DNA of 46,420 nucleotides from a virus. This document shows, piece by piece, positions 1,481 to 44,011 of the stretch (its first letter is position 1; each line of letters begins with the position of its first letter). Both the position numbers and the translations under genes were made by a program. The notes under the pieces were generated by a model. That model had not been told where the DNA came from and ran no database searches. It saw nothing but the letters and a program-made list of their open reading frames with translations. The stretch is from positions 1 through 46,420 of the IMG/VR virus record IMGVR_UViG_3300034146_000006; one strand, 5' to 3'.

Positions 1481-1498
1481 TGATACGTTGTATCACTT
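1481..1498 (+). promoter_or_regulatory. Copy of dispersed motif TGATACAnTGTATGCG; near-perfect palindrome abutting the integrase start codon
   Basis: TGATACgttGTATCA (6-bp arms, 3-bp spacer) at 1481-1495. On the minus strand it reads TG-A-TACAAC-GTATCA-GTG(start). Confidence 0.45.
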
Positions 1499-1519
1499 TT
1501 CGAGCTTTTCCGCAATGGT

Positions 1520-1957
1520 CTAGGGTTTGGGTTTGCAGGTGCGGATCGCGGCGTCGAAATCCCGTTGCAGGCGCTCGGCAACCTTCTCTGACTCGACCGT
1601 GATGGAGTGGGATGGCGCGTTCTTCACCACGCCGGGGTTACCGTATTTGCTGATCTCTTGGCTCTTGAAGTCGCCGAGCAAGACGACCTGCCATCGACCG
1701 TCATAAGCTACGTTCGGCTCGATGTCGGTGGCAGTGATGGTGTCGAGAGGCACTGACCACTTCACTTCAGTGACGGGTGCGCTGTAGCCGGTGAGCGTGA
1801 AGTTCTCGATCCACGATGCGCGGCACTCCGACCTGACCGAGTGGACGGTGACGGTCATCTGCTTCGAGAGTTGTAGCGTCCCGGCATCTTCTAGGTAGCT
1901 CAAAGACTGCGCTACCGTGCCGATCGAGAGCGTGAGGACTAAGAGGATGATCTTCAT
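1520..1957 (-). CDS. Secreted protein of unknown function (moron-like, adjacent to integrase)
   Basis: 145 aa. N-terminal signal peptide MKIILLVLTLSIGTVAQS and two Cys. Lies between an intrinsic terminator and int. Confidence 0.8.
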   Translation of the reverse strand: MKIILLVLTLSIGTVAQSLSYLEDAGTLQLSKQMTVTVHSVRSECRASWIENFTLTGYSAPVTEVKWSVPLDTITATDIEPNVAYDGRWQVVLLGDFKSQEISKYGNPGVVKNAPSHSITVESEKVAERLQRDFDAAIRTCKPKP

Positions 1958-1960
1958 AGG

Positions 1961-1989
1961 AAAAGGGCAGGCGTGTGATGCCTGCCCTT
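1961..1989 (-). terminator. Rho-independent terminator ending the long minus-strand early/replication operon
   Basis: Stem GGGCAGGC (1965-1972) / GCCTGCCC (1980-1987), extendable to 10 bp, with a 7-nt loop. Followed on the minus strand by TTTT. Confidence 0.6.
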
Positions 1990-2017
1990 ATAATACACTG
2001 CGAATGATCTCAGCGTT

Positions 2018-2872: not shown

Positions 2873-5534
2873 AGCTCACCTTGTCTGCCGGGATCACATA
2901 GCACTTGACCGCGTTCGCAGACTCCGCTAGTCGTTCCGTCTTGGTCGGGATGTCGTTCGCTTTGATCCACTGCCTGACGTAGTTGGCGTCCAGACCTTGC
3001 TCAAGCGCATAGGCGTTGAATAGGGTGATCGCGATACAAAGCTCGACCGGGGTAGCGCCTAACATCTTCCACTTGCCACGGGCTTCACCGCGCGGTTCCT
3101 TGTACCAACCGCGATTGCTTGCTTCGCGCTGACCGATGCTCTCTTGAAAACGGTTCGTATAGTCATCGAGCATCTGCCTGACCTTCGTGATCGGATCGAC
3201 GGTGCTCCGTGAGCGCTCTTGTAGACCTGCCAATGCGTTAGCGATCGCGTCCGATGTCTCGAACTGGATCAACCCAAGGCGGCTTGCGATCTCACCGATG
3301 ACGGCGTTGGCACCGATCTGCCATATACCGAACCTATAGGCGGGGTCGATGTTCTTCTGGATAAGCTCCACCTTCGCATCGACTAGCGCGACCACATCGT
3401 CCTTGAACCGCATCAGATACTCGATCAGCAGACGACCGGCGATACCGTAGTGCTTACGTGAGGCTTCGGCTAAGGCTTTACCTGTCGCGATGTCCATCTT
3501 GTTCTCGACGTTGAAGCTGAGTTCGAGCATTCGCTTGCGCTCTGCGTCGGCGATCACTGTGTCCGGGAGCGACATCAGGTGGACGTTCGATGTGAAGATG
3601 GTGAGCGTGCGCCAACCGCCCTTGTCGTTGATCCTCTGATCGCGGGTTGACGTGTCGCGCGCCTTACCGTTAGCGGCGGCGTAGATGATCTCGCCGAGGC
3701 GATCCTTGCGGATGGTAGCGGCTTCGTTGACGATGATCGGCAGGTTGTTGACCTGACGCCAGTGCTCGAAGAATGCGTTGACCGTGGAGTTCGGATCGAC
3801 TGTGAGCGCTTCCGGGTGACCGAAGGCAGATACACCGAAATTCGCGGCTGTGGTCTTACCACCGGATGACTCCCCGGCGAGCGACAGGACTGACCCCTGA
3901 TGCTCTGTAAGCGCGAACACCGGCGAGGCGAGGGCACCGAGCACTGTGAAGCGGTGCATCCAGAACTCGTCCCGGTCTAGCAGGCGACTTGCGCGCGTCC
4001 ACTCACTGAGCGTGCCCTGCGATCCGAGCTTCGTGACACGCTTGGGATCGAGACGTTGGCTAAGGCGCGCCGTGTCTTTGCCGGTTGCTGTGATTAGCTC
4101 CGTGCCGATCACGAACCCGCTATCGTGAATGCCGAACCGATCGAATACGATCGCCGAACCGCGCTGTTGTTTGAAGGCTGAGATAGCCATCCGCAGATAG
4201 AGGATGACGACCTTGATGTTGCCGTAGTCACTAATGTCCTGATCGAGCAACCACGTTGCGATGTTGGCGTCCACCGCCAAGAGTGACTGTTTGAACGAGG
4301 CGCGGCAGAGCTTCTTATTAGCGTCGTACCACGAGAGTTCGACTTCCGATCCACCGCCGATCTCACCCTTGGCGACCTGCGACACCCAAACCGGCTGAGT
4401 GAACACTATCTTCCGCTCTACGTCGCCCTCACCGTCGATGGAGTTGAGGTACACGCCTTCCTGACCGCAGAGGTAGCCCTTGGGTAGGATGATCTCGGTA
4501 TCGTCGCTCTCACGCGTCCTGCTAGGCTCAATGGCGAGGGTTTCCGGGGTAGGCTCTGTGATCTGAAGCGGGGTGACAGTCTCCCCCAACTGAATCGGCG
4601 ATGTGATCTTGCCGAGGAACGGGCACCCCTGACACCCGGCAGGATTTACTTCTCCGTATTTGGCGCAAGTGGTAGGCGCGAACTCGACCGCTCTTTCGTA
4701 TTTTGCGGCTGTGGCTTCTTCACTGTAATCTGGATGTCCACTAGACCACTCCTGAGCAAGTCGCTCACCATCAACGCAAAGGGCGAGGACTCCAAGACCT
4801 GCATACCATATAGGCTCACTGAGATTTCCCTTTGATCCTCGGAAACCGTCGAGCTGTTTACATTGATCTGCGATTCGCTCTGCATCCTTTGGAGTTGTTG
4901 GGAGATCGACACTAAAGACGGCATTTGATTGTTTTGCATTTTTCTTAACCTCTACTTTGAACGTGTAGGCGCCGACTGCTTCTTCGATCTGCTCAGGTGT
5001 GCATAGCACGACCTCGGTAAGAAGCTCGACCGGCTTTGGGTTCTTCGGGTCTTTATAGTTGTGCGTCCCCGGCACGCGCATTATCCGGGCACTGTCGATC
5101 GTGATGCCGTGATCCGCGAGAAGGTTCTGTTCGACACAGGCTTCACGCAGGGCGCTCGCGAGCGGTTGCCATTGTTCCGGGGTGAGGTAGCGATCGAGTA
5201 CCCACCACACGTGGATACCGTTACCTGAATTGACGACGGCAGGTTCCGGCAGACCGAGAACGTCTATGAAGTTACGAAGCGCCGTTACTGCTTCGATCTT
5301 GTCCGTGTATGTGTTGGGCTTGCCGCAGTCGATGTCGAGCCAGAAGGCTTTGATGATTTGAACGTGCTCTTTCTTCCGCTCGTCGGTGCAGAACAAGGCA
5401 GGCGCAAACCACACGTCTCGCTTCGGCGGGATAGCGATAGAGTTGTCACCGGCGAACGAGTGGCGCATCTTCCCCGACACGACACAGCGCACACCGTCTG
5501 ACTCACCCCAAACTGTATTAAGAAACGATGACAT
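2862..5534 (-). CDS. DNA primase-polymerase (AEP) fused to SF3-type helicase (DUF927-like)
   Basis: 890 aa. AEP motifs WLDIDCGK, GNGIHVWWVL and RVPGTHNYK. Walker A LAGESSGGKTT in the C-terminal half. Confidence 0.9.
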   Translation of the reverse strand: MSSFLNTVWGESDGVRCVVSGKMRHSFAGDNSIAIPPKRDVWFAPALFCTDERKKEHVQIIKAFWLDIDCGKPNTYTDKIEAVTALRNFIDVLGLPEPAVVNSGNGIHVWWVLDRYLTPEQWQPLASALREACVEQNLLADHGITIDSARIMRVPGTHNYKDPKNPKPVELLTEVVLCTPEQIEEAVGAYTFKVEVKKNAKQSNAVFSVDLPTTPKDAERIADQCKQLDGFRGSKGNLSEPIWYAGLGVLALCVDGERLAQEWSSGHPDYSEEATAAKYERAVEFAPTTCAKYGEVNPAGCQGCPFLGKITSPIQLGETVTPLQITEPTPETLAIEPSRTRESDDTEIILPKGYLCGQEGVYLNSIDGEGDVERKIVFTQPVWVSQVAKGEIGGGSEVELSWYDANKKLCRASFKQSLLAVDANIATWLLDQDISDYGNIKVVILYLRMAISAFKQQRGSAIVFDRFGIHDSGFVIGTELITATGKDTARLSQRLDPKRVTKLGSQGTLSEWTRASRLLDRDEFWMHRFTVLGALASPVFALTEHQGSVLSLAGESSGGKTTAANFGVSAFGHPEALTVDPNSTVNAFFEHWRQVNNLPIIVNEAATIRKDRLGEIIYAAANGKARDTSTRDQRINDKGGWRTLTIFTSNVHLMSLPDTVIADAERKRMLELSFNVENKMDIATGKALAEASRKHYGIAGRLLIEYLMRFKDDVVALVDAKVELIQKNIDPAYRFGIWQIGANAVIGEIASRLGLIQFETSDAIANALAGLQERSRSTVDPITKVRQMLDDYTNRFQESIGQREASNRGWYKEPRGEARGKWKMLGATPVELCIAITLFNAYALEQGLDANYVRQWIKANDIPTKTERLAESANAVKCYVIPADKVSYGD

Positions 5535-5953: not shown

Positions 5954-6960
5954 TAACCTTTCAGCTTGCCGAGCAACTGATCGAGTGAGGTAATCTCACC
6001 GCCGTCCTCTGTTGCCGGTGCGGGAGTAGCAACGGACGCCGGGGCAGGTTCGGCTTTCTTCTTAGGGGCGGCTTTCTTCGCGGCTTTCGGCTTGGTGCCA
6101 AGAAGCTCGGCGAGTCCGGGCGCAGGTGCGGCTTCGGGTTCAGGTTCCGGTGTCGGATCAGGAACGGGCACTGGTGCAGGTGCGGGTGCGGGTGCGGGTG
6201 CCACTTCCGCGACGACCACCGGCTGTTGCGCAGTGTGGGTCGGCTCAGAGCTACGCGCCTGAATCTTGACCGCGTTCAGCACGTCGGACTCTTGCGCGAG
6301 GTTGGTGATCGTCTCGTAGTCCTCACGGGTGTCTACTGTCCCGGCAAACTCGAACTGTAGCGAAGGAAACTCCGTGTCGCCGAGGCTCACACGCGTCTTT
6401 GCGGCGTTGGCGGGTACGCCTGCGAGGTTGAGCTTCTGGATGTACGCGGCGAACGGCTTGAGCGATGCGGCAGGAATGCGCAGTGCAAACGCTTTGTCGG
6501 GAGCGGCGGTCAGCGCGAGCACGATGAGCTTATAGTCGTTGCAGGCTTTCGACTTCTTGCCGGTGACCTGACTGATCTTCGACCCCCACGCGTTGTTGGG
6601 GCAGACCTGACAGTTCGTGGCGACAGGGTTGTCCACGTTCCTATCTGGATGCTCGCCGTCGGCCGATGAGCAATCGGGTGCCTTGTTCTCGGCGCTTGGG
6701 TTGTACCCACCGGCGTAGAACGTCTTGGATATGTTCGGGCGCGACGTGACGAGGAACGCTTCTATGAAGGCATCCCTAAGCACGGTTTCTTCGCCGCCGA
6801 TCTTGAGACGGAAGCGGTTACCTCGGATCGAGATTTGAGGGATAAACTCGCCGCCTGAAATACCACCCGCGAACGGATCGTTGACGACTGCAAGTTCTTC
6901 CTTGCCGATGATACCTGCGAGCGCCGCAGGGTTAAATTTTTCAAGTGCGTTTTCTGACAT
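5953..6960 (-). CDS. Cys4 protein with Pro/Ala/Lys-rich tail; possible ssDNA-binding or recombination accessory protein (function not recognised)
   Basis: 335 aa counted from the ATG at 6960 (MSENALEKF), preferred over 6993 for its shorter overlap. Motifs PDCSSADG...CQVCPNNAWGSK...KACNDYK. C-terminal tail is PAPAPAPAPVPVP followed by KPKAAKKAAPKKKA. Confidence 0.8.
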   Translation of the reverse strand: MSENALEKFNPAALAGIIGKEELAVVNDPFAGGISGGEFIPQISIRGNRFRLKIGGEETVLRDAFIEAFLVTSRPNISKTFYAGGYNPSAENKAPDCSSADGEHPDRNVDNPVATNCQVCPNNAWGSKISQVTGKKSKACNDYKLIVLALTAAPDKAFALRIPAASLKPFAAYIQKLNLAGVPANAAKTRVSLGDTEFPSLQFEFAGTVDTREDYETITNLAQESDVLNAVKIQARSSEPTHTAQQPVVVAEVAPAPAPAPAPVPVPDPTPEPEPEAAPAPGLAELLGTKPKAAKKAAPKKKAEPAPASVATPAPATEDGGEITSLDQLLGKLKG

Positions 6961-7168
6961 TGTTTTCAGCTTTTCCTTTTCGGTATGCCTCACTGTTGGT
7001 AAGGTTCTTGTTAATGTGTTCCGAGAGAAGTTGGCGACTTACCTTCAAGCCCCGCGCGTTCTCCAATATGGTCTTGCCGGACGCTCCGAGCTTGAACAGC
7101 AGTTCCGGCGTGAACTCGATTCTTCGGCGCTTATCTACAGCTACGACCGCGCCGTTCCATCGCTTCAC
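6941..7168 (-). CDS. Small putative DNA-binding protein (HTH-like)
   Basis: 75 aa. GKTILENARGLKVSRQLLSEHI reads like a helix-turn-helix. Confidence 0.6.
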   Translation of the reverse strand: MKRWNGAVVAVDKRRRIEFTPELLFKLGASGKTILENARGLKVSRQLLSEHINKNLTNSEAYRKGKAENNVRKRT

Positions 7169-7605
7169 GCTCGCCTGATGCCGACCGTATTCGTGGTCAC
7201 GAGGTTGACGCCGGGCACGATCTCACCTGTCTCAGTGAGTCGGGCTTTGAGCGCGTCCTTCGCGACATCCTTCTTCAGCAGATCGTAAGCATCGTTCTTC
7301 TTGACGTACCCGATGAACACGTTCCAGTCGGCGATCTTCGCGGACGTAAACGGCTTCTGATACGCGGTGCCGTACTTGGTCTTTGCCGAGTCCTGACCGG
7401 ACTCCATTAGCAGTTCCAGTAGGCGCCCCTCGATACGGTTCATACAGGCGTCGGCGGGTGCCTGTCTCTCAGCCATTTCGCGCTTGATCTGTTCCTTCTG
7501 ATCGCGGAACTCAACATAGTGCTGAACGAGTTCGCCGTAGTCCTTGGACTCACCGATCGCATCGAGAATCGCCGTCAACTGCGCTTCGTCATTTATTTCT
7601 TGCAT
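7165..7605 (-). CDS. Coiled-coil protein, Mu Gam / gp157-like (tentative)
   Basis: 146 aa. N-terminal coiled coil, then KTKYGTAYQKP...VPGVNLVTTNTVGIRR, resembling Gam-type end-binding proteins. Confidence 0.75.
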   Translation of the reverse strand: MQEINDEAQLTAILDAIGESKDYGELVQHYVEFRDQKEQIKREMAERQAPADACMNRIEGRLLELLMESGQDSAKTKYGTAYQKPFTSAKIADWNVFIGYVKKNDAYDLLKKDVAKDALKARLTETGEIVPGVNLVTTNTVGIRRA

Positions 7606-7790
7606 CTTGTCCTCTTGATGTAAGCGAAGGCTTGTCGGACTACCTTCACGGATGTATTGAAATAGAGAGCGAGCTTTTCTTCCGACGCACCTGCGGCTAA
7701 CTCCCTATGTATGACTGCGGCTTCGTTCTCAGTCAGCCGCGCCGGTTTGGGTATGTCAGGGGTAACCCAATCGTCCCGCTCTTGTTTCAT
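7593..7790 (-). CDS. Small HTH-like protein (65 aa)
   Basis: Start moved to the ATG at 7790, which overlaps the helicase stop (TAATG). Sequence LTENEAAVIHRELAAGASEEKLALYFNTSVKVVRQAF. Confidence 0.6.
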   Translation of the reverse strand: MKQERDDWVTPDIPKPARLTENEAAVIHRELAAGASEEKLALYFNTSVKVVRQAFAYIKRTRCKK

Positions 7791-14065: not shown

Positions 14066-14256
14066 ATCTGACCTCGGTTCGTGAGCACGAGGAGAACTGT
14101 CGTAAAGAGAGCGCCGTCCGTGCCGAAAAAGTAGTACCCGGCTGTGATCGCCAAGGGGTATGTGAGAACCCGCCACACACCCCACATCGCTTTGCTGACC
14201 GTGACCTGTAGGTTCTTCCCGGCGATGGTCAGGATCAGCTTCGGTTGCTGTTTCAT
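14062..14256 (-). CDS. Small membrane protein (64 aa, two hydrophobic segments)
   Basis: The ATG at 14256 overlaps the stop of the kinase-fusion gene (ATGA). Confidence 0.6.
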   Translation of the reverse strand: MKQQPKLILTIAGKNLQVTVSKAMWGVWRVLTYPLAITAGYYFFGTDGALFTTVLLVLTNRGQI

Positions 14257-15671
14257 AAGCGCTCAATCATCCAGTCAACCGTTCCGTAGAGGTCGGCGAT
14301 CGTCAGGTGGTTAGGGAGCACCCAATCGACACGGGTGAGCGGCTGTTCGGATGCGTGACCGTTGATTGCCTCTACCCCTTGACGTTTGACTTCACAAACT
14401 TCACCACCGAGCGCCTTGACGAACTCAGCCTCGTTGTCGAATCGAATGTCCGTGATGACGACCGGGTTGGGGTACGCCGCCGCGATCTTCTTCTTGGCGA
14501 TGTCGAGCCAGATGTGGTCGCCGTGAATAGCACGCCCGGCATCCGTACCGATCTTCTGAAGTGTGGTGCGAACGGCAGGGAACTTCTTGGCACGCTCCCA
14601 CCCGATGACGCTGACGAGAGTGCTAAGACGGGTGAAGAAGGTTAAGCCTTCCGCGCCCCACGCTCCCTGCAACCCGAAGAAGTCCCAAAGGGTTAATTCT
14701 TCTAAGAGGGCTTCCTGCGTGAGTCCGACAACGGGATCGAGGGCAAGTGCGGCGTCCCTAACCGCGTCTGCGAGTCCTATCCGGGTGAAGCCGTACGTCT
14801 CTACGAGGTAGGCGCCTACCGTGTCCTTGCCGCTCTGAGCCACACCGTTGAGTCCGATGATGATTTGCTCTCGACGCGGTTCCTCGTCCTGCGTACCTGT
14901 CTCGTCCGGTGCCGGGTAGACTGGAGCCTTGGGTGACTGACCGAAGCAGTCCTTACCTACGTGTATCTCGTGACACGCGCAGTCCTGACTTGAATCGCCG
15001 TCTGCCTGTGGGATCACCTCAAGCCTAGTGATGTCGGAAGGGAGAACGTACCATCCGTCCTCAGTCTCGTAGCGAAAGCCGTATTCCTGATGCACGCCCG
15101 CCCCGGTTATAGTCGTCACCTCACCGATTTCAAAACTGTGGCGATCGTCAGAGCCATTCGCGATCACTCGGACTCGATCTCCCGGCTGATACGTTGTATG
15201 CGTTTCCTGCTCAAATTTTTTGATGGGGGGCTTGCCGTTGCTTGGCGGGGAGTAGAAGTCACCGGCGCCGACGAAGGTATCCTTAATATTGAATACCCTT
15301 ACGTGCCCGTTCTCTCGGAGTTCGGGGTAAGAGAAGTACTTGACCGGCTTACCGCCTTGGAGTGCGTGGGCTACCTCAGCCTCGATCACAAGTGAGTCCT
15401 GCCAACCGTCCAGACAGAGAACCCAAAGCTCGTCGGAGCGGTCGATCATTGCCCTGTCGTAGTCCATCCACGGACTCATACCGTCCTCGGTATTGACCGC
15501 GCTGAATGATACGAGGTCTGTAATCGGGTGACTGTTAATGATCGGCGAGAAGATTAGGTATCCCTGTTCGATGAACTTCGCCGTCGCGTCTTGCACCTGT
15601 CTAACTCGGCGCTCTGTTATGTCTGGAAATTGGCTCGTGTACGGTGACGCGAGATAGATGAGTTTATCCAT
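14253..15671 (-). CDS. Three-domain fusion: nucleoside 2-deoxyribosyltransferase-like (DUF1937-type) + SH3-like middle + dNMP kinase
   Basis: 472 aa. N-terminus IYLASPYTS...FSPIINSHP...SDELWVLCLDGWQDSLVIEAEVAHA. C-terminus P-loop GLNGVAQSGKDTVG and ITDIRFDNEAEF...GHASEQPL. Confidence 0.9.
   Translation of the reverse strand: MDKLIYLASPYTSQFPDITERRVRQVQDATAKFIEQGYLIFSPIINSHPITDLVSFSAVNTEDGMSPWMDYDRAMIDRSDELWVLCLDGWQDSLVIEAEVAHALQGGKPVKYFSYPELRENGHVRVFNIKDTFVGAGDFYSPPSNGKPPIKKFEQETHTTYQPGDRVRVIANGSDDRHSFEIGEVTTITGAGVHQEYGFRYETEDGWYVLPSDITRLEVIPQADGDSSQDCACHEIHVGKDCFGQSPKAPVYPAPDETGTQDEEPRREQIIIGLNGVAQSGKDTVGAYLVETYGFTRIGLADAVRDAALALDPVVGLTQEALLEELTLWDFFGLQGAWGAEGLTFFTRLSTLVSVIGWERAKKFPAVRTTLQKIGTDAGRAIHGDHIWLDIAKKKIAAAYPNPVVITDIRFDNEAEFVKALGGEVCEVKRQGVEAINGHASEQPLTRVDWVLPNHLTIADLYGTVDWMIERL
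15187..15204 (+). repeat. Copy of dispersed motif (TGATACGTTGTATGCGTT), intragenic
   Basis: Shares the 14-mer CTGATACGTTGTAT with the copy at the integrase start. Confidence 0.5.
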
Positions 15672-16061: not shown

Positions 16062-16266
16062 TCTTAATGTGCTGTCCCACAGATGAAACAGAGGGCACTA
16101 CTAGGAAAGACGGTCTTAAAACCGAAATTAAATTTTTCCCCTTGAGTGATTAAGAGTGGTTGTTTGTACGGAGAGAGTTTTTACGACCTCTGTTTGTGCC
16201 TCGATCTATCCGACTTCCCAAATTCGGTATTGCTTAGATCGTGCCCGTGCTTCCAACTGTATGCCA

Positions 16267-16284
16267 AGATACATTGTATGCGGT
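16267..16284 (+). promoter_or_regulatory. Copy of dispersed motif (AGATACATTGTATGCGGT), just downstream of the HNH stop
   Basis: Palindromic core ATACAtTGTAT, in an intergenic position. Confidence 0.45.
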
Positions 16285-16290
16285 CAGGTG

Positions 16291-16626
16291 TCAAGCGGTC
16301 TTGGAAGATTTTTTCTGCCGGGCGGCAAGGTGGGTAGGTTCGACGCAATCGTTTCGTTCGCAGGTGCGTAGGATGGTCTTGTTCTCAATGTCTCTCAGGT
16401 CGAGGTTGTGCGCGATGCACCACGCGACCCGGTGAGCATAAACTACGTCGGCGCCTACACTCATTTTGCCGTAGCCTCGCGGAGTGTCGGCGCCTTCCCA
16501 AATTAAATGTTCGCCGTCCTTTCGTACACGTGACCAAAAGAACTGCTGTCGCTCAAAGTCAATCGGCATAGTCAGGGGTACGCTATCGAAGCCTTGAGTT
16601 GTAATCAAGTCCGTTTCATTCATCAT
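16291..16626 (-). CDS. HNH homing-type endonuclease
   Basis: RGYGKMSV...YAHRVAWCIAHN...ILRTCERNDCVEPTHL is an HNH_3 signature. Start taken at the ATGATG at 16626, because the track start at 16680 is a GTG; this gives 111 aa. Confidence 0.85.
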   Translation of the reverse strand: MMNETDLITTQGFDSVPLTMPIDFERQQFFWSRVRKDGEHLIWEGADTPRGYGKMSVGADVVYAHRVAWCIAHNLDLRDIENKTILRTCERNDCVEPTHLAARQKKSSKTA

Positions 16627-16644
16627 AGATGCGTTGTATGTGGT
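16627..16644 (+). promoter_or_regulatory. Copy of dispersed motif (AGATGCGTTGTATGTGGT) abutting the HNH start codon
   Basis: On the minus strand it reads TACAAC-GCATCT-ATG. Confidence 0.4.
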
Positions 16645-16696: not shown

Positions 16697-16709
16697 GCTA
16701 CAATGTAGC
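16697..16709. promoter_or_regulatory. Perfect 13-bp palindrome GCTACAaTGTAGC (variant of the dispersed motif)
   Basis: Intergenic, between the genes at 16737-16982 and HNH. Confidence 0.4.
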
Positions 16710-16736
16710 AGAAGGAAATTTGACGGTCAATTCCTT

Positions 16737-17227: not shown

Positions 17228-17473
17228 TTATACCTCACTCGCCGCCTGAAGCATCAGACGTAGCTGTCGTTCCTTGTTCTCAATTTTAGCGCTGAAAGCC
17301 TTGGAGCCTAAGCGCCTCGCCTCGCGGGTGTACTTGGTTAGTAAGGTCGCATCCGGGTTGCATTCAATACAGTACGGGGATGCACGCCCGGTGTGCGATG
17401 TGTAAAAGGCTTTCGCGTCCTTAAACTCTTGGCAGTGCTGACACTTGTATTGCTTTTTTATGGTCTTACTCAT
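17228..17473 (-). CDS. Zinc-ribbon protein (81 aa)
   Basis: CQHC...CIEC cysteine pairs. Confidence 0.7.
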   Translation of the reverse strand: MSKTIKKQYKCQHCQEFKDAKAFYTSHTGRASPYCIECNPDATLLTKYTREARRLGSKAFSAKIENKERQLRLMLQAASEV

Positions 17474-17529: not shown

Positions 17530-17868
17530 TTAGTCCGCGTCGAATGGTGTAGGCATTACCGGGAGCTTGAACGGCTTGTCTGCCGACTTTTTTGCCGGTG
17601 CCTTCTTTGCAGGTGCCACGTCGGTCGCCTTCGGAGCCTTAGCCGCCTTCTTTGCAGGTGCCGCCTTCGGAGCCTTCGGAGCCTTGGGTGCCTTCTTCGC
17701 GGGTGCCTCGATGCCCTTAGCCTTATCGCGCTGTAGCTTCAGGTAACCACCGATCTTGCCGGTGATCCGTTCTGAGTCCTCAGCCTTGATCTTTGGGTTA
17801 GCTTCTTTGAGTGCCGTCGCGATGATCTGCGCGTCTCGTTTGTCGAATGAAATTCTATCTACCGCCAT
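17530..17868 (-). CDS. Histone H1-like / AKP-repeat DNA-binding protein
   Basis: 112 aa. C-terminal half is PAKKAPKAPKAPKAAPAKKAAKAPKA...PAKKAPAKK. Confidence 0.8.
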   Translation of the reverse strand: MAVDRISFDKRDAQIIATALKEANPKIKAEDSERITGKIGGYLKLQRDKAKGIEAPAKKAPKAPKAPKAAPAKKAAKAPKATDVAPAKKAPAKKSADKPFKLPVMPTPFDAD

Positions 17869-17881
17869 TGTGTATTGGTGT

Positions 17882-17912
17882 GCGGTTTATACGTTCCCCG
17901 CTAAACGTCTTA
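17882..17912 (-). promoter_or_regulatory. Conserved early-gene upstream element, copy C
   Basis: Minus strand: TAAGACGTTTAGCGGGGAACGTATAAACCGC, with 17 nt between TATAAA and the ATG at 17868. Confidence 0.4.
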
Positions 17913-18326
17913 TTACCTCTTAACTTGATTCTTCAGCCAGTCCCACCAAGTTGTAACCTTTGGTGCCTTCGGTGGTATCTCCCACATAAGGTCTAGGTCT
18001 GCCTTGGATATAACGCGGAGAGGTTGACCATTCAGCACGAGAAAATCGCCTTCCAGAATCTCCGTATTGCCTTCGTTGAGTTTGATCCGGGTTACGCCTT
18101 TCGATTGCTCGATCGCGAAGCCTGCCACGAGGAATGCCCCGATCTGTGCCGCGTGCTGTAACGTACCGTCAAACAAAATACCGTCTAATGTTTTCCCCTT
18201 GATCGTTGTGAGAATTTCGTGTGGCACCCTCGGCGCTGTCGCTATTCTTGGTGCCGGTGTTGTCGCCCTGAAGAACGCGTTTACTGCCGCCTCGGATGCT
18301 TTGCGGGTTAGAAGTCCTTGCCTCAT
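17913..18326 (-). CDS. Hypothetical protein (137 aa)
   Basis: Co-oriented ORF coupled to the upstream gene (ATGA). Confidence 0.75.
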   Translation of the reverse strand: MRQGLLTRKASEAAVNAFFRATTPAPRIATAPRVPHEILTTIKGKTLDGILFDGTLQHAAQIGAFLVAGFAIEQSKGVTRIKLNEGNTEILEGDFLVLNGQPLRVISKADLDLMWEIPPKAPKVTTWWDWLKNQVKR

Positions 18327-18532
18327 TCCACCACCTCGCCACCGTGTTGGATGACTACTTTAATAGGTAGCTTGTTCCGTAGCGCCTTGATCTTGTCGTC
18401 GCGGAATACCTTGTCTAGCGCGTCTGTTGCCGCCGTCCTGATGCTCGAACCCTCGCCGGTTTTGGTGATGTAGCGTTGATGCGCGGGTGTGATGTTTGGG
18501 CACTCAGCCGTGATGATGATTTGATATTTCAT
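18323..18532 (-). CDS. Hypothetical protein (69 aa)
   Basis: Start moved to the ATG at 18532 (MKYQIIIT), which has SD GGGGGAG 5 nt upstream and an ATGA overlap with the micro-ORF. Confidence 0.7.
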   Translation of the reverse strand: MKYQIIITAECPNITPAHQRYITKTGEGSSIRTAATDALDKVFRDDKIKALRNKLPIKVVIQHGGEVVE

Positions 18533-18948: not shown

Positions 18949-18977
18949 GCCGGGTTATACGATCCCGGCGAACGTCC
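18949..18977 (-). promoter_or_regulatory. Conserved early-gene upstream element, copy B
   Basis: Minus strand: GGACGTTCGCCGGGATCGTATAACCCGGC. 26 nt are identical to copy A. Confidence 0.4.
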
Positions 18978-18992
18978 TCGGATGCCTTGGTG

Positions 18993-19954: not shown

Positions 19955-19985
19955 TGCGGGTTATACGATCCCGGCGAACGTCTTA
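19955..19985 (-). promoter_or_regulatory. Conserved early-gene upstream element, copy A
   Basis: Minus strand: TAAGACGTTCGCCGGGATCGTATAACCCGCA, with 19 nt between TATAAC and the ATG at 19940. Confidence 0.4.
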
Positions 19986-20882: not shown

Positions 20883-20959
20883 ATAAGGAATGCGAACCCG
20901 AAACTCAGGACTAATCCCGTAAAGGTTGCGAGTGTTACTAATAGTGAATAGCGCTTCAT
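20879..20959 (-). CDS. Micro-ORF, 26-aa hydrophobic peptide
   Basis: ATGA overlap with the gene starting at 20882. MKRYSLLVTLATFTGLVLSFGFAFLI. Its ATG lies inside a dispersed-motif copy. Confidence 0.35.
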   Translation of the reverse strand: MKRYSLLVTLATFTGLVLSFGFAFLI

Positions 20960-20973
20960 ACAGTGTATGCGTT
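20956..20973 (+). promoter_or_regulatory. Copy of dispersed motif (TCATACAGTGTATGCGTT)
   Basis: Shares the 12-mer TGTATGCGTTCT with the copy at 21086. Confidence 0.45.
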
Positions 20974-21085
20974 CTGTGGACGTGTGCCGGGCTAGTGAGG
21001 TTTACGCTTCGCTTCTTAGGTCTAGGCTACTCAGAACTCCCGAGTGTTGGTTAGTGTCTTTGTTACTAACCTACTCTAATAAGAA

Positions 21086-21103
21086 ATACACAATGTATGC
21101 GTT
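21086..21103 (+). promoter_or_regulatory. Copy of dispersed motif (ATACACAATGTATGCGTT)
   Basis: Intergenic hub. A weaker third copy, TGACACACCGTATGCGCT, lies at 21152-21169. Confidence 0.45.
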
Positions 21104-21189
21104 CTTTCAGAAAAACTTTGCTAGTTGTTTTCTGACTAACTGTAGGTAGACTGACACACCGTATGCGCTCTGTCAAGTCCTTTATTTTG

Positions 21190-21480: not shown

Positions 21481-21506
21481 TACAGGTTGTGGTCTGTGCT
21501 CTTGAC

Positions 21507-21525
21507 TGTAACAAAGTCTGTTACA
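21507..21525. promoter_or_regulatory. Operator-like palindrome TGTAACA-aagtc-TGTTACA preceded by TTGAC
   Basis: 7-bp perfect arms with a 5-bp spacer. Confidence 0.4.
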
Positions 21526-21670
21526 AAACCCGAAAGGTACTCCCTAGGGGTCTACACAGGGGGTGTCGCGCGACCGCACTCGGAAGTTAGTTGGGGTATT
21601 TTCCCGACTCTCCACCATTCGGGTGGGCAGGGGTGAGGAAGCCGAGTGGGTGCCGGGCGGCTCGATTCGG

Positions 21671-21963: not shown

Positions 21964-22003
21964 ACAACGTGGTTGAACACGTAAGTCCCTTTTAAAGCGT
22001 CAT

Positions 22004-22369: not shown

Positions 22370-22387
22370 AAAGCATACAACGAATCA
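22370..22387 (-). promoter_or_regulatory. Copy of dispersed motif on the minus strand (TGATTCGTTGTATGCTTT)
   Basis: Ends 6 nt upstream of the ATG at 22363. Faces the copy at 22410 within a 61-bp divergent intergenic region. Confidence 0.45.
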
Positions 22388-23856: not shown

Positions 23857-25874
23857 CCAAACAAGCATTCGACATATTCGCTTCGGCGGCTGATGCGGCG
23901 ATCCCCCAAGGCGGCGTGACCGTTTCCGATTGGGCAGATATGCACCGCATCCTGTCCCCTGAAGCGTCGGCTGAACCCGGACGATGGCGCACGTCTCGTG
24001 TACCGTACGCTCGTGCGTGGATGGATGTCATCACCGAGCCGACCGTTCACACTGTAGTCCTCAAGACATCATCGCAGGTTGGTAAGTCCGAAGTGCTCAA
24101 CAACGCCTGCGGCTACTTCATCCACCACGACCCGTGTCCGATCCTACTCATTCAACCCACCGTGGATCGAATGAAGGACTACTCGAAGAAGCGCATACAG
24201 CCGATGCTTCGAGACACCCCGGTACTCGCGGCTGTGATGTCGGATGACAAGTCACGAGACAGCGACAATACGATGCTGTCTAAGGCGTTCGTCGGCGGTC
24301 ATTTACTTATGGCAGGCGCTAACGCGGCATCAGGACTCGCATCGAACCCGATCCGTGTGGTACTCGCCGATGAGGTCGATCGCTACCCGCGCGACGTTGA
24401 CAACGAAGGTGATCCGCTCACACTCGCCATCCGACGCGCCACTACATTCTCAAACCGTAAGATCGTCCCCACTTCGACCCCGACCATTAAAGGGGAGTCG
24501 AGGATCGAGGAACTGTTTAATACGAGCCACGGCTTCAAGTATCACGTCCCTTGTCCACATTGCGGCACGTTCCAAGTCCTCAGATGGCGTGACGTGATCG
24601 AGAGGGTGAACGACAAGGGTGAGGTAGAGGTCGAGCACGGGGACTACCGCGTCCAGTGGGAGCTAGACGAGGACGGGAACATCAAGGAATGTTACTACGT
24701 CTGCGAGCAAGGCTGTCTGATCGAGCCGCATCACAAGCTGTGGATGATCTCAGCAGAATCAGGCGCAGAGTGGCGTGACGCGGAAGGCGAATCACTGGAT
24801 GCCGTTCTCACAGCAGGGAACCACAAAGGCTCAATCGGCTTCGCTATCAACGCGCTCAATTCACCTTGGTTCCACTGGCACGAGATCATCGCCGAGTTTC
24901 TTGTAGCGATCAAGGCGGCGAAGGAAGGGAAGCCCGAATTACTGAAGGTGTTCGTCAACACGTTGCTAGGCGAGACGTGGGACACGAATCAGGAAGGCTC
25001 CGACATCAAGGGACTCGAACAGCGCGAGGAAGAATACAGCGCCGAAATCCCGCTCGGAGTGCTTTGCCTGACAGCCGGGGTCGATACCCAACCGGATCGC
25101 CTCGAATGCGAAATCGTAGGGTGGGGCATAGGCGAGGAATCGTGGTCGATCAACTACTACGTCATCCGAGGCGACACGAATCAGCCGCAGGTGTGGCAAC
25201 AACTATTCGAGGTCTTGAGCAAGAGCTACGAGTGCGAGCGCGAGGACTCTACAGGGACGCGGCTGACCCGGACGATCGACGCGTGCTGTATCGACTCAGG
25301 TGGTCACAATACGCAGGCGGTGTATGCGTTCACGAAGGCGCATAGCGGACGTAAGTGGCTTGCGATCAAAGGTAGCTCGACCGCCGCGAAGGAAACGATC
25401 TCGATGCGTCCGACTAAGCTGAAAGGTGGAGCGCTACTGTACATCGTCGGCACCAATCTCGTGAAGGACAAGTTGTTCGGCTACCTGAAAGTCACGGAAC
25501 CCGGCGCCGCATACTGTCATTTCCCGGCAGGGTACGATGACGAGTATTACAAACAGCTTACGGCAGAGAAGCGCGTCAAGAAGATCAAGAAGTTCGACAA
25601 GAACGATCCCCACGGCTACAGCCAGTGGATGTACAAGAAAATCCGATCACGTAACGAAGCGCTCGACTGCCGTGTTTACGCGATGGCGGCACTCTACCAC
25701 TTGAACTTCAACTTCCCGCGAGCACTTGAACAAGAGAACTTGCATTGTGCCGCCAAAACTGATACACTGTATGTGTCTGAAAATGCAGTAAAAGACAACA
25801 ATGAGAGTTTCGTGCGTAGGTTTGGGCAGACGCAAGGATTCGTTTCTAAGTTCACACGGCAGGGTCGTACCTAG
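23847..25874 (+). CDS. terL: Terminase large subunit, lambda gpA family
   Basis: 675 aa. VSDWADMHRILSPEASAEPGRWRTSRVPYARAWMD aligns with the lambda gpA N-terminus. Walker-like SSQVGKSE. GTG start. Confidence 0.95.
   Translation: MSVTKQAFDIFASAADAAIPQGGVTVSDWADMHRILSPEASAEPGRWRTSRVPYARAWMDVITEPTVHTVVLKTSSQVGKSEVLNNACGYFIHHDPCPILLIQPTVDRMKDYSKKRIQPMLRDTPVLAAVMSDDKSRDSDNTMLSKAFVGGHLLMAGANAASGLASNPIRVVLADEVDRYPRDVDNEGDPLTLAIRRATTFSNRKIVPTSTPTIKGESRIEELFNTSHGFKYHVPCPHCGTFQVLRWRDVIERVNDKGEVEVEHGDYRVQWELDEDGNIKECYYVCEQGCLIEPHHKLWMISAESGAEWRDAEGESLDAVLTAGNHKGSIGFAINALNSPWFHWHEIIAEFLVAIKAAKEGKPELLKVFVNTLLGETWDTNQEGSDIKGLEQREEEYSAEIPLGVLCLTAGVDTQPDRLECEIVGWGIGEESWSINYYVIRGDTNQPQVWQQLFEVLSKSYECEREDSTGTRLTRTIDACCIDSGGHNTQAVYAFTKAHSGRKWLAIKGSSTAAKETISMRPTKLKGGALLYIVGTNLVKDKLFGYLKVTEPGAAYCHFPAGYDDEYYKQLTAEKRVKKIKKFDKNDPHGYSQWMYKKIRSRNEALDCRVYAMAALYHLNFNFPRALEQENLHCAAKTDTLYVSENAVKDNNESFVRRFGQTQGFVSKFTRQGRT
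25760..25777 (+). repeat. Copy of dispersed motif (TGATACACTGTATGTGTC) inside the terL 3' end
   Basis: TG-A-TACACT extended -10-like sequence, about 100 nt upstream of the next gene. Confidence 0.4.
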
Positions 25875-41005: not shown

Positions 41006-41113
41006 GAGAGGTAACTAGCCATCGCATTCCCTTGGATTTCATTAGCAATTTCGATTGGGTTCACTTATCTCGGTCAGCTTCTCACAAAGCGCCCGAAGCA
41101 GAAGGACTCAGGC

Positions 41114-43084
41114 TTGGAAGGATTTCAGGTTCCGACTGCCACGGAAGATCGACCGAAGCCGATGTGGGTAGGCACGGTTCGTCACCGCTCGCCTAACTGT
41201 ATTTGGTACGGCGACTACTCCGCGAAGCCGATCAAGAACAAGGTCAGCGTCATCGGTGCGATCGCCTCGTTCGGCGCGGCACTGTTGAACAAGCAAATCA
41301 TCGGCTACAAGTACCACCTAGGCATTCAACTCGATCTCGGTTGGGGACAGGTGGACGAGATCACGCGCATCATCCTGAATGACAAGGAAGCGTGGACAGG
41401 CTCAGTCGCGTCGGGCACCATCACGATCGACAAGCCGAATCTCTTTGGTGGTGAGAATGAAGCGCAGGGGAACGGCGGCTTTCAAGCGGCTGTGGTGGTC
41501 TACCCCGGCAACGGTTCGCAATCCGCAGACTCATACGTAACAGCGAAATCAGGCGCAACACCCGCGTACAGGAACGACGTGCTGATGGTGTTCAAAGGAC
41601 TGACGAGCGGCGGCGCTTACGTCGGCAACTCGGCGTCGTTCCCGGAAATTACGGTCGATGCTCGGCGGTGCCCCAACACTCTCGGAGTTACGGGCGGTAA
41701 GCACGTCATCGACACCTACGACGCTAACCCGGTCTGCGCTCTGTATGAGTTTATGACTCGCGCGGACAATGAGTTCGGCGGCGGCTTCAGCGCGGTACAG
41801 TTTAACGTCGCCAACTGGAAGGCGGCGGCTGAGACAGTACACGGCGAGGGACTTGGCATCTCTCGGATGTTCGATCAGTCCGGCGAGGTCGAGGGGATCA
41901 TTGACGAGTACCTTCAACTGATCGACGCGGTTATCAATATCAATATGACTACGGGCAAGTTTGAGCTTGTCCTATGCAGGGACGACTACGATCCCGATAC
42001 GATCCCTACGCTCGGTGACGACGACATCATCGAGGTGACAAGTTACAAGCGCGGCTCATTCATCGAGACTTTCAACGAGGTCAAGATGTCCTACGTCGAT
42101 CGCACGCAGAACTTCGAGTCCATTCCGATCGCGGCACAAGACGGCGCCAACTCATCCGGTCAACAGGAAGTACGATCGACCACAAGCAAGATCGAGGGGC
42201 TATCGAACCCGACGACCGCGAACAAGTGTCTATGGCGAGAGTTGAAGCTAGTGTCTACACCGCTCGCGTCGATCGGGCTTAAGGTCAATCGTAGGGCGTT
42301 CACGTTGGCAGGCGGGGCGGTGTTCAAGTGGATCGGCACGAGCTACGGTGTCGCAGGGATGATCTTCAGGGTGACCGAGGTTGACCCCGGCACGCTGAAC
42401 TCTAACGTCATCGAGATCAGGGCGGTGCAAGATATCTTCGCGCTAGGGTCTACAGCGTATCTCCCCCCGGCAGATAGCACTTGGGTAAAACCGGAACTGG
42501 ATGCTGAGAGCATTACAGTTCAGCGCGCGATGGAGCAACCGTACCGCTTCCACGAGACGGACAGCACGCGTGTCTTTGCAGTGGCGTCCCCGGCGAATGG
42601 TGCGCAACTCGGCTATAACCCTCACACGCACGAAGCGACCGATCCGTATACACAGAAGCTCTCGAACATCCCCTTCACGCCGAACGGTGTGCTCGATGCG
42701 GACTACACATCGACAGCGTTTGAGACGACAGGCGCATTGGTGGTCACACCGACTTGGGGGATGGAAGATTTACCTGCGACGGTGCTTCCGATGGAGATCG
42801 TCTCGGCATCGCGCGGACTGCTTCTCATCAACGACGAAATTCTAGCGTACGAGAGTTACACGATTGACGGTGACGGGAACTTCGTGTTCGACAACGTGTG
42901 GGGTGGACTACTCGACACGGTGCTCGGCTCGCACGAGGAAGGCGACCGTGTGTGGTTCTTCTCAGAGGGGCTTGCGCTTGATCCGACTGAGTACACGCCG
43001 GGAGCGACCGTTAAGGCAAAGCTCGCTTCAATCGGTAACGAGGGCGCGGTAGCGCTCGGTTCTTGCACGGAGCTAACAGTATGA
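41114..43084 (+). CDS. Central tail fibre / host-specificity protein (lambda J / GTA g15-like)
   Basis: 656 aa from the TTG at 41114 (SD GAAGGA 7 nt upstream). The frame is open back to 41015, so the true start is uncertain. Confidence 0.85.
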   Translation: MEGFQVPTATEDRPKPMWVGTVRHRSPNCIWYGDYSAKPIKNKVSVIGAIASFGAALLNKQIIGYKYHLGIQLDLGWGQVDEITRIILNDKEAWTGSVASGTITIDKPNLFGGENEAQGNGGFQAAVVVYPGNGSQSADSYVTAKSGATPAYRNDVLMVFKGLTSGGAYVGNSASFPEITVDARRCPNTLGVTGGKHVIDTYDANPVCALYEFMTRADNEFGGGFSAVQFNVANWKAAAETVHGEGLGISRMFDQSGEVEGIIDEYLQLIDAVININMTTGKFELVLCRDDYDPDTIPTLGDDDIIEVTSYKRGSFIETFNEVKMSYVDRTQNFESIPIAAQDGANSSGQQEVRSTTSKIEGLSNPTTANKCLWRELKLVSTPLASIGLKVNRRAFTLAGGAVFKWIGTSYGVAGMIFRVTEVDPGTLNSNVIEIRAVQDIFALGSTAYLPPADSTWVKPELDAESITVQRAMEQPYRFHETDSTRVFAVASPANGAQLGYNPHTHEATDPYTQKLSNIPFTPNGVLDADYTSTAFETTGALVVTPTWGMEDLPATVLPMEIVSASRGLLLINDEILAYESYTIDGDGNFVFDNVWGGLLDTVLGSHEEGDRVWFFSEGLALDPTEYTPGATVKAKLASIGNEGAVALGSCTELTV

Positions 43085-43971
43085 CATCCAACCGATCTCT
43101 AAAACCTTACCCGACAGCGAACGTGGAGCTTGAAGATACGAGCGTGATCGGCATCGGCAGTGGGCTTACCTACCTACCTATAACGTGGCTCGGCAAGACG
43201 AACGTAACCGAGGGGTCGAACAGTTCGATCACTAAGACAAGCGGAGCCGTTGATGTATGGGACGCCGGGGCATATAGCGCTGAGTCCATTGCGTCCGGTG
43301 ACGCCGGTGTGAGAATGACCATCCCTTCCGGGATGTCTATGGCTGTGATGATGATCGGACTCAACAACGCGACGGACGCGCCTGTTGACAATAACTTCGC
43401 ATCACTCGACTACGCGATCTTCGCCTTCCAAGGCATCTTAGAGGTGTCGGAGAGCGGCACAGTTACGAATCTGTTCATCCCTTACACCACCGGGGATGTG
43501 CTTGAAGTACGCGTCGTGTCCGGGCAGGTGGAGTACACCCAAAACGGAACCGTAATACGGACTGTAGCGTCACCGACCCTCAACTACCCGCTCGTCGCGG
43601 ATTGCTCGATCTGTAGGATCGGGAATACTCTCGGCACGCCTGAGTTTATGGCGACGCCTGCCGCAGTATCAGGCGGCGTAGAGGTGACGTGGAATACCCG
43701 CAACCGCCTGACCAGTGGTGTGAAGAAGCAGACGGATGCGTCGGACGCGCCGGAAGAAGGGCAGACGACCACCATCGAAATCTACGGTGAGGACGGCACG
43801 ACCTTGCTGAGAACCGAGGACGGGATCACCGGCGACTCATACGACTACACTGCCGAGAACGAGATTGCCGATACAGGGGTTTCCGTGTTGCAGACGAGCT
43901 TAACCTTCAAGATCAAGTCTATTAGAGACGGCTACGAGTCCGCAGAGATCGTTGTCGTGGTCGAACGGTAA
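43081..43971 (+). CDS. Tail fibre / receptor-binding accessory protein
   Basis: 296 aa from the ATG at 43081 (ATGA overlap). Lectin-like N-terminal half and an FN3-like C-terminal half (VEVTWNTRNR). Confidence 0.8.
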   Translation: MTSNRSLKPYPTANVELEDTSVIGIGSGLTYLPITWLGKTNVTEGSNSSITKTSGAVDVWDAGAYSAESIASGDAGVRMTIPSGMSMAVMMIGLNNATDAPVDNNFASLDYAIFAFQGILEVSESGTVTNLFIPYTTGDVLEVRVVSGQVEYTQNGTVIRTVASPTLNYPLVADCSICRIGNTLGTPEFMATPAAVSGGVEVTWNTRNRLTSGVKKQTDASDAPEEGQTTTIEIYGEDGTTLLRTEDGITGDSYDYTAENEIADTGVSVLQTSLTFKIKSIRDGYESAEIVVVVER

Positions 43972-43993
43972 CCTTGATTAAGAATGGCTAAAA

Positions 43994-44011
43994 TGATACA
44001 ATGTATGTGCG
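43994..44011 (+). promoter_or_regulatory. Copy of dispersed motif (TGATACAATGTATGTGCG); candidate lysis-cassette promoter or operator
   Basis: TG-A-TACAAT extended -10-like sequence, intergenic. Confidence 0.45.

Follow-up and report, generated by a model that had tools for sequence, protein, structure and literature searches.

Dyads set in predicted sigma-70-type promoters of an uncultured tailed phage as probable operators of a dimeric repressor

The 46,420-nt genome window analyzed here (positions 1 to 46,420 of IMG/VR virus record IMGVR_UViG_3300034146_000006) comes from an uncultured tailed phage and carries a dispersed inverted repeat of 15-16 bp with the core TACAnTGTA. We propose, with a probability of roughly 0.6, that a dimeric, sequence-specific repressor, probably a phage product, uses this motif as its operator, and that the motif is set in the cores of sigma-70-type promoters; promoters and transcription starts are predicted from sequence throughout. 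Two observations carry this proposal: the dyad takes up two different registers relative to the promoter elements, and its half-sites change on both sides together between related phages. This combination points to the operator of a dimeric protein rather than to a bare promoter motif.

With up to three mismatches, the consensus TGATACAnTGTATGCG matches the window 11 times, against 0.69 ± 0.83 matches expected from dinucleotide shuffles, which gave three at the most; one of the 11, at 3898, is probably a chance match. The symmetric core ATACAnTGTAT (at most one mismatch) occurs eight times against 0.43 expected, and exact TACAnTGTA six times against 0.23. A weight-matrix scan of the window returned sites at 1481, 15187, 16267, 16627 (weak), 20956, 21086, 21152, 22372 (minus strand), 22410, 25760 and 43994, with no further site above the score gap. 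Non-coding DNA makes up 8.4% of the window but holds nine of the 11 sites (binomial P = 1e-8). These counts bear out a sequence-only reading of the same window, which had listed the copies (each is present within 1-2 nt of the position it gave) and had described them as enriched, biased to intergenic DNA and built on the dyad ATACA-N-TGTAT. It had placed them at the integrase start, on either side of the HNH endonuclease gene, ahead of the first leftward gene (three copies), in the 61-bp gap at 22364-22424 (a pair) and upstream of the lysis cassette; all of these locations hold, the last lying 54 nt upstream of an endolysin gene (PHROG 181, E = 4e-29). Its four-fold count of the 10-mer TGTATGCGTT is likewise right (4 against 0.08 expected), but the fourth copy, at 25321, is an isolated half-site within the large terminase gene and falls outside the listed set.

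To place these sites in a comparative setting we used relatives recovered through two proteins of the window, a 236-aa protein and the DNA polymerase. The 13 relative loci, designated below by L numbers, include six left arms, and none of them spans the endolysin gene. Across 39 sites in the window and its relatives, between four and eight of the eight mirrored positions are paired at each site, the sole exceptions being two marginal sites in L068. Perfect palindromes occur at 1481 in the window, at 2693 in L054, at 7068 in L060 and at 8351 in L066.

The sites of the window, with the promoter elements predicted around them, are as follows.

1481..1495, minus strand: integrase promoter dyad, perfect palindrome TGATACGTTGTATCA (minus-strand reading TGATACAACGTATCA); -35 TTGCGG (1515-1510), 17 bp, TGaTACAAC (-10 at 1492-1487), 6 nt, GTG at 1480
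15187..15202, plus strand: intragenic copy in the segment for the variable linker that joins the two domains of the DUF1937-dNMP kinase, encoding ..THTTYQ..
16266..16294, minus strand: replication-operon promoter, TTGACA (16294-16289), 17 bp, TATCTT (16271-16266), a 10/12 match; the dyad CGCATACAATGTATCT (16282-16267, minus strand) fills the spacer and -10
16627..16642, minus strand: weak copy CACATACAACGCATCT, adjoining the ATG (16626) of the HNH endonuclease gene (PHROG)
16697..16730, minus strand: promoter upstream of the HNH gene, TTGACC, 17 bp, TGcTACATT; its -10 is contained in a variant dyad at 16697-16709 (minus reading GCTACAnTGTAGC, variant palindrome GCTACAATGTAGC)
20956..20971, plus strand: early copy 1, above the first leftward (early) gene (ATG 20882), with no convincing -35 found on either strand
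21086..21101, plus strand: early copy 2, above the early genes, left half degenerate
21152..21177, minus strand: early copy 3, dyad at 21152-21167 with a perfect TTGACA (21177-21172) 3 bp upstream; perhaps an early promoter whose spacer contains the dyad, with a weak -10, CAGTCT
22372..22387, minus strand: copy TGATTCGTTGTATGCT, 8 nt upstream of the ATG (22363) of a 119-aa orphan gene; its right half gives TATGCT, a possible -10 by analogy with the TATGCT of L054 and L063
22410..22444, both strands: divergent dyad TGCTACAATGTATGCG (22410-22425) with overlapping -10 hexamers; rightward (plus), TGcTACAAT, 6 nt, GTG (22425) of the first virion gene; leftward (minus), GTGACA (22444-22439), 17 bp, TACATT (22421-22416), toward the 119-aa gene
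25740..25775, plus strand: terminase-embedded promoter, TTGCAT (25740-25745), 17 bp, TGaTACACT; dyad at 25760-25775
43974..44009, plus strand: lysis-cassette promoter, TTGATT (43974-43979), 17 bp, TGaTACAAT; dyad at 43994-44009, endolysin ATG at 44063

In the first arrangement, which we term register a, the distance between a TTG-type -35 and TGnTACAnT is exactly 17 bp (at 25760 and 43994, and on the minus strand at 1481 and 16697), and the dyad, as it also does at 22410, spans the extended -10 from its TG to about position -1. The extended -10 (TG plus TAnnnT) is present at these four sites and also at 15187 and 22410; it was not found at 16267, 20956, 21086, 21152 or 22372. Start codons follow these -10 elements at short distances. 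The junctions read TACAAC-GTATCA-GTG at the integrase gene and TACAAT-GTATGC-GTG at the 236-aa gene, which is the first virion gene; at both, 6 nt separate the -10 from the start codon, which stands at the predicted transcription start without a Shine-Dalgarno sequence. Translation from the GTG at 1480 gives VDRAFIYCRVSSDSQ, an N-terminus typical of serine recombinases, in keeping with the Pfam assignment of the product as a serine integrase. The spacing of the window recurs in L051, L055 and L056, and is 7 nt in L058 (TGgTATAAT-GCACCAC-GTG) and L066 (TGgTACACT-GTAAGAC-GTG) and 8 nt, twice, in L060 (TGATACAATGTATCA-GT-ATG and TGATACAGTGTATCA-AT-ATG); the integrase promoters of L062 and L068 read TGaTACAGT-N6-ATG and TGaTATAGT-N8-ATG. 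An extended -10 followed at once by a start codon would be the signature of leaderless or near-leaderless mRNAs. We considered the ATG inside GTATGCG as an alternative start codon and rejected it, as the frames downstream are short and inconsistent. The endolysin gene has a predicted leader of 63 nt: a 10-bp inverted repeat, GTGCGTTAAA/TTTAACGCAC (44007-44036), starts where the transcript is predicted to begin and shares bases with the end of the dyad, and the leader with this repeat folds at -14.8 kcal/mol (z = -2.0).

This layout raises the possibility that the motif is a promoter class and nothing else, namely the preferred extended -10 and discriminator or start region of the phage, used by the host RNA polymerase with no dedicated repressor; its palindromy would then arise because TACAnT is read on both strands of bidirectional promoters, or from constraint upstream of a leaderless start. 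We consider this explanation improbable. It would account for TGnTACAnT with -35 hexamers at 17 bp, for start codons 6-8 nt past the -10 hexamer in six lineages and for the plausible promoters on both strands at 22410, and it is consistent with L065 and with the promoters of the integrase genes in L062 and L068, in which the right half of the dyad is missing but the extended -10 and the short or absent leader are kept. It does not account for the copies at 21152 (plus reading CACACC) and 22372 (TTCGTT), where no -10 occurs in the matching orientation, nor for GTATGCG, the best-conserved bases of the motif, which lie downstream of the -10 and are better conserved than the -10 itself. The sequence-only reading had offered an operator set or an extended -10 class as alternatives; each was half right, and the two are best combined as a dyad operator that appears to be built into sigma-70-type promoters.

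In a second arrangement, register b, the dyad is not aligned with an extended -10. In the replication-operon promoter, TTGACA-17-TATCTT (16294-16266, minus strand), the dyad lies in the spacer and -10 rather than running from the TG, and its center falls at about -15 relative to the predicted transcription start, as against about -8 in register a. Homologous promoters in the relatives read TTGACA-17-TAGTAT (L064), TTGACA-17-TATGCT (L054), TTGACA-18-TATGCT (L063) and TTGACA-17-TAATAG (L062), and the distance from the dyad to the -35 is the same in all of these and in the window. GCATAC, the stronger half-site, occupies the upstream arm in the window and L064 and the downstream arm in L054 and L063, which indicates that the position of the dyad is conserved and its polarity is not. 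The upstream half of the dyad in this register serves as neither -35 nor -10, and its TG is one base off the extended -10 register, a placement that a promoter class alone does not explain; it is still conserved. Conservation without a promoter role calls for another reader of these bases and thus points to a DNA-binding protein.

Two sites have syntenic counterparts in relatives whose 236-aa homologues are 38-75% identical to that of the window: the one that precedes the first virion gene and the one in the 3'-terminal part of the large terminase gene. The site corresponding to 22410 is kept together with its adjacent start codon in L051, L055, L056, L060, L066 and L058. The terminase-embedded promoter, which in the window falls within the terminase coding sequence near its 3' end and ahead of the head-tail joining gene (25874), is retained as a whole unit in L051, L055, L056 and L065, and its dyad takes the form TGGTACAATGTACCA in L058 and TCTTACACTGTATGAC in L066. 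In L060 the same promoter has shifted to just past the terminase stop codon (3816-3853), before an inserted 225-aa gene. The promoter is coded within the peptide ENLHCA.K.DTLYV (ENLHCAAKTDTLYV), and DNA and peptide are both conserved in five lineages. A further site stands directly upstream of the capsid gene in L060, L065 and L066. The intragenic copy at 15187 is retained in the close relatives L054, L063 and L064, in one of them flipped, and is absent from L062, L067 and L068. The isolated half-site at 25313-25330, GGTGTATGCGTT(C/T)A in the large terminase gene, recurs at 3308 in L051, 2950 in L055 and 3186 in L056, and its conservation is probably due to coding constraint.

Comparison of these sites shows that the core TACAnTGTA is constant across lineages, while the mirrored positions 5-7 differ, both arms together: position 5 is A:T, G:C or T:A, position 6 is G:C or C:G, and position 7 is T:A or G:C. 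Four dyad types result.

Window clade: CGCATACA / TGTATGCG (GCATAC/GTATGC), perfect at 2693 in L054 and near-perfect at 6349 in L064
L060, L062 and L065: TGATACA / TGTATCA (TGATAC/GTATCA), the L060-type dyad TGATACAnTGTATCA
L058: TGGTACA / TGTACCA (TGGTAC/GTACCA)
L066 and L068: GTCTTAC / GTAAGAC (TCTTAC/GTAAGA), the L066-type dyad GTCTTACnnnGTAAGAC

Such two-sided changes at positions 5-7 answer to no demand of a sigma factor, and they are a further point against a promoter class on its own. The right-arm sites of the window clade are hybrids, TGATAC...GTATGCG, likely because their upstream half must also furnish the TG of the extended -10. At a fixed dyad position the asymmetric variant flips between relatives, both in the replication promoter (L054 and L063) and at the intragenic site (L063). 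Conservation in related phages had been suggested as a check on the sequence-only reading, and its outcome favors an operator: sites are kept at the same positions, and their dyad symmetry survives changes on both sides. Beyond the relatives, an exact-pattern scan of IMG/VR gave 50 matches, with one exact match each, and only one of these contigs is a true relative; four unrelated loci (L005/L010 and L024/L028) contain a weaker second match to the weight matrix. A de novo repeat search of L058, L067 and L068 returned other repeats and few dyads.

The dyads could in principle be read by a global repressor of the host, such as a LexA-type SOS regulator recruited by the phage, in which case induction would follow directly on host DNA damage. 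Recruitment of this kind would explain why no phage repressor gene is recognizable, and the LexA box TTAC-N3-GTAA is the core of the L066 and L068 dyad GTCTTAC-N3-GTAAGAC and shares its geometry with ATAC-N3-GTAT (PMC8565304). That source counts short palindromes such as TTAC-N3-GTAA in Bdellovibrio among reported LexA boxes, and describes LexA motifs as very stable over broad host groups (PMC8565304). Against this stability, at least four dyad specificities occur here among phages whose DNA polymerases are 60-76% identical to that of the window, and two of them occur in a single metagenome, 3300072490 (L056 and L063 as against L058). Nor was a prophage copy found: a search of 185,579 species genomes with the first virion protein gave no match, and the DNA polymerase profile matched only cellular polymerase I (24-33% identity) in the same genomes. 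We therefore judge a host repressor unlikely. Rapid change of specificity among close relatives argues instead for a phage-encoded partner of the dyads, and the presence of different dyad types in one metagenome is the appearance expected of different immunity types.

Which phage protein might bind the dyads was addressed by examining the small and conserved genes of the window. The sequence-only reading had named the product of the 119-aa gene (22004-22363, minus strand), beside the small helix-turn-helix-like proteins, as a possible partner of the motif in a lysogeny switch; on this view the 119-aa protein would be the repressor, and the copies at 22372 and 22410 a switch of the CI/Cro kind. 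Two copies do flank the gene, which is divergent from the virion operon, and its predicted leftward promoter overlaps the 22410 dyad. Its product, however, matches no DNA-binding family, has no homologue among 5.8 billion proteins, where it is the sole member of its own cluster, and has no tblastn match in the 13 relative loci, including all those that keep the motif. The gene calls returned for five of these (L056, L058, L060, L065 and L066) include none upstream of the 236-aa homologue. The opposite gene encodes a virion protein with an HK97 gp10-like fold and not a Cro, and the divergent pair of orphan and virion-protein gene, with no CI or Cro homologue found, does not have the make-up of a bistable CI/Cro-type switch. 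The lack of a homologue in motif-bearing relatives makes the 119-aa protein an unlikely partner, and we hold the switch built on it to be very unlikely; the reading frame looks like a recent insertion beside the genome end.

Other proteins were considered as partners of the dyads in their turn. The 236-aa protein (22425-23135) is conserved and basic, and its gene opens the right arm, ahead of that for the small terminase. A confident AlphaFold2 model of it (pLDDT 89) has no match in the PDB; its only viral matches are unnamed proteins and, more weakly, an HK97 gp10-like tail component, and on these structure matches we rejected it as an autoregulator. As judged from the model, the protein is most likely structural, and the position of its gene is unusual for an HK97 gp10-like protein. 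The products of the first early genes (88 aa and 196 aa) are not conserved in the relatives. Among small reading frames, the 65-aa helix-turn-helix-like ORF at 7593-7790 and the 81-aa zinc-ribbon ORF at 17228-17473 are present in all six left arms. The 65-aa ORF and a 75-aa helix-turn-helix-like ORF at 6941-7168 were set aside, being partly conserved but with putative recognition helices that do not follow the dyad type. A 69-aa ORF (18323-18532) occurs only together with ATACA-type dyads, an occurrence that fitted a ribbon-helix-helix repressor; this candidate was rejected on the topology of its model, which is strand-strand-helix-helix-strand-strand. These four conserved small proteins are weak candidates with mixed comparative support, none of it decisive. 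A search for overlooked antisense genes gave, among the matches listed, only shadows of conserved genes on the opposite strand.

Several observations weigh against the operator proposal. No CI, Cro, LexA/S24, Arc or other repressor family matched any of the approximately 20 small or unassigned ORFs scanned against Pfam, PHROGs and NCBIfam, which agrees with the earlier remark that no CI/Cro-type repressor could be seen. The candidates themselves are poor fits: the putative recognition helices of the 65-aa ORF are non-basic in L063 and L064, the 75-aa ORF was detected in only three of the six left arms, and the 69-aa ORF has no significant match to PDB structures, Pfam or PDB sequences. A promoter scan found no recognizable promoter at several left-arm copies. 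A second TTGACA promoter, free of dyads, lies at 16061-16032, downstream of the regulated replication promoter, and repression of the replication operon may thus be incomplete. Finally, nine of the ten orientable copies in the window have the plus orientation (GCG end toward higher coordinates), whatever the direction of the gene, and this shared orientation of the asymmetric form is not something a simple dimer model demands.

The orientation bias could instead reflect a strand-polar DNA signal that has nothing to do with transcription initiation, such as one for packaging, replication priming or recombination, or a DNA hairpin. In its favor, the plus orientation prevails although the left arm is transcribed leftward, and L064 behaves likewise. 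Such a signal is nevertheless hard to reconcile with the flips seen at the homologous promoter of L054 and L063 and at the intragenic site of L063, or with the many sites of relatives that are perfect palindromes and hence have no polarity. The sites follow promoters and start codons and not replication or packaging landmarks, and a hairpin stem would measure just 5-7 bp. We regard a strand-polar signal as extremely unlikely.

Our proposal of a dimeric repressor can be put as a tentative scheme. The core TACAnTGTA reads as a -10-like TACAnT on both strands, and the outer bases (TGA.. / ..GCG) would carry the specificity of the repressor. At the register a promoters, those of the integrase, virion, head-tail and endolysin genes, a bound dimer would exclude RNA polymerase, and transcription would begin at or next to the start codon to give leaderless or near-leaderless mRNAs. 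In register b the dimer would lie across the spacer and -10, after a consensus TTGACA, and block polymerase in a classical repression geometry. The other copies, at the early genes, at the start of the HNH gene and within a gene, would be additional operators or roadblocks. With a TTG-type -35, optimal spacing and an extended -10, the late and lysis promoters should need no activator, and negative control is thus plausible. Since there are sites at integrase, early, replication, virion and lysis units alike, a single global repressor is the simplest reading, and one protein could keep most transcription units off together, for instance in a lysogen. Protein binding, repression, encoding by the phage and a purpose in lysogeny are all what we infer from the arrangement of the sites.

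A bolder version, which we see as possible but doubtful, is that the protein belongs to a new family of immunity repressors, missed by current profiles, that silences all promoter classes without CI or Cro. If true, a repressor of a new family would act through single operators fused to the -10 of leaderless-transcript promoters, and, as the core is a -10 hexamer on both strands, one dimer could gate divergent genes simultaneously. For an uncultured lineage with no regulator recognizable by homology, the sites provide a concrete regulatory map that can be tested, comprising about 12 promoter/operator sites, in which one short dyad is fused to promoters in two registers. The four covarying operator specificities form a natural series that could be used for finding the cognate protein and for studying the divergence of immunity, and the repeated layout of extended -10 and start codon hints that the host tolerates leaderless mRNAs.

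The genome in which the sites lie is organized in two arms.

8-20882, minus strand: leftward arm, with a (large) serine integrase, DUF927 primase-helicase, endonuclease VII, SNF2 helicase, Cas4-like nuclease, family A DNA polymerase, DUF1937-dNMP kinase fusion, HNH endonuclease and many small ORFs
From 22425, plus strand: first genes of the rightward arm, encoding the 236-aa protein, a DUF1441 protein (read as small terminase) and a GpA-type large terminase
Remainder of the rightward arm, plus strand: head-tail joining protein, portal, protease-capsid fusion, tail genes and the endolysin at 44063

The sequence of the window is also present as ENA contig k141_822691 and as a JGI contig. Isolate phages offered no near-identical DNA; the nearest (Roseobacter CRP, Synechococcus S-CBS, Xanthomonas Xp15 and Acinetobacter phages) reach only 30-34% protein identity and give no host assignment. 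Searches of the window for tRNAs and Rfam families gave no match. Between the arms lies a gene-free stretch of 1.1 kb (20883-22003) that is GT-rich on the plus strand and rich in repeats, including a tandem GGTGTACTGGTG (21366-21410), two copies each of CTTTGTGACCSGGAT and AAATMGGGTTACA, (GA)9 and (TTA)5. The contigs of seven relatives terminate 250-660 bp upstream of the 236-aa homologue, which suggests that the physical (cohesive) ends of this phage with its GpA-type terminase are probably in the gene-free region, at 20883-22003, and that the window is a circular permutation.

Two genes associated with dyads vary between relatives. The DUF1937 gene (14253-15671) has a dNMP kinase C-terminal domain in the window, L062, L063, L067 and L068, and a different, unrelated C-terminal domain in L054 (2168-3313) and L064 (1906-3066); the fusion junction is the variable linker that bears the intragenic dyad in the window clade. 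The HNH gene (16291-16626) has a promoter and a dyad of its own and is bordered by the zinc-ribbon gene on one side and the replication-operon promoter on the other, and an apparent degraded HNH remnant at the same place in L054 (about 1900-2060) suggests mobile insertion into a regulatory gap.

Among other elements of the window, a second one of about 30 nt, AGACGTTCGCCGGGATCGTATAACCCGCA, occurs on the minus strand at 17881-17910, 18949-18978 and 19955-19984, each copy 12-17 nt upstream of an early-gene ATG (17868, 18938 and 19940). Its 15-nt core is not significantly enriched (3 against 1.04 expected) and its small hairpin is no better than those of shuffles; the element might belong to another promoter class or act as an RNA signal. 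The short motifs AGCTGAAAACA and (A)GGTCGTAA stand just upstream of the starts at 19940, 11034 and 44063, and also at 15671, 25874 and 31483; a classical Shine-Dalgarno sequence is often missing where they occur, both are repeated six to seven times in L067, and they may be a lineage-specific translation-initiation signal. An early ORF (17530-17868) contains KAPKA-type repeats resembling histone H1. Beside the integrase, the ORF at 1520-1957 encodes a 145-aa protein with an N-terminal signal peptide, possibly the product of a lysogenic-conversion or exclusion gene.

Comparison with known systems places the proposed operators close to several of these and identical to none. In lambdoid phages, OR and OL, like the Arc/Mnt operators of P22, are dyads of 14-21 bp that lie over the -35 and -10 of sigma-70 promoters and are bound by dimers, and relatives differ in half-site sequence and so form immunity groups; these operators cluster at two or three early promoters beside the repressor gene, and late genes are under antitermination. 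The dyad type and the overlap with promoters are alike here, but single sites stand at the integrase, replication, virion and lysis promoters, and no homologue of CI, Cro or Arc is detectable. The Streptomyces phage phiC31 also has a serine integrase, and its repressor recognizes a conserved inverted repeat at many dispersed, mostly intergenic positions; its repeats are concentrated in the early region, separate from special early promoters, and the likeness to our sites extends to no similarity of sequence or protein. Transcription of lambda cI from PRM provides a precedent for an extended -10 (TGn) promoter that drives a leaderless mRNA. The predicted promoters of the integrase and first virion gene, and those in six related lineages, share TGnTAnnnT and a start codon about 7 nt downstream without a Shine-Dalgarno sequence; here, however, the layout serves several genes and is combined with a proposed dyad operator. 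Bacillus phage GIL01 is a temperate phage under direct control of host LexA. Phages of this kind resemble ours in having palindromic promoter boxes and no classical repressor, and xTAC-N3-GTAx matches a LexA box (PMC8565304), but here the specificity of the box differs between close relatives.

The closest functional parallel is the genome-wide repressor regulon of L5 and other cluster A mycobacteriophages, in which the repressor gp71 has more than 20 short sites across the genome, in promoters and short intergenic spaces, silences early and late regions alike, and has a site specificity that diverges among relatives to give new immunity types (PMC9283540, PMC6550527). In L5 a monomer binds each site, which is asymmetric, 13 bp long and oriented according to the direction of transcription (PMC9283540). 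The sites of the window are instead dyads, about 12 in number and mostly in promoter cores, with a plus orientation that is found in both arms independently of transcription and that flips between relatives; they are thus not stoperators of the L5 type, and no gp71-like protein is encoded. Taken together, these comparisons suggest that the motif most likely represents a familiar kind of element, a phage repressor-operator regulon over sigma-70 promoters, with an unusually wide reach.

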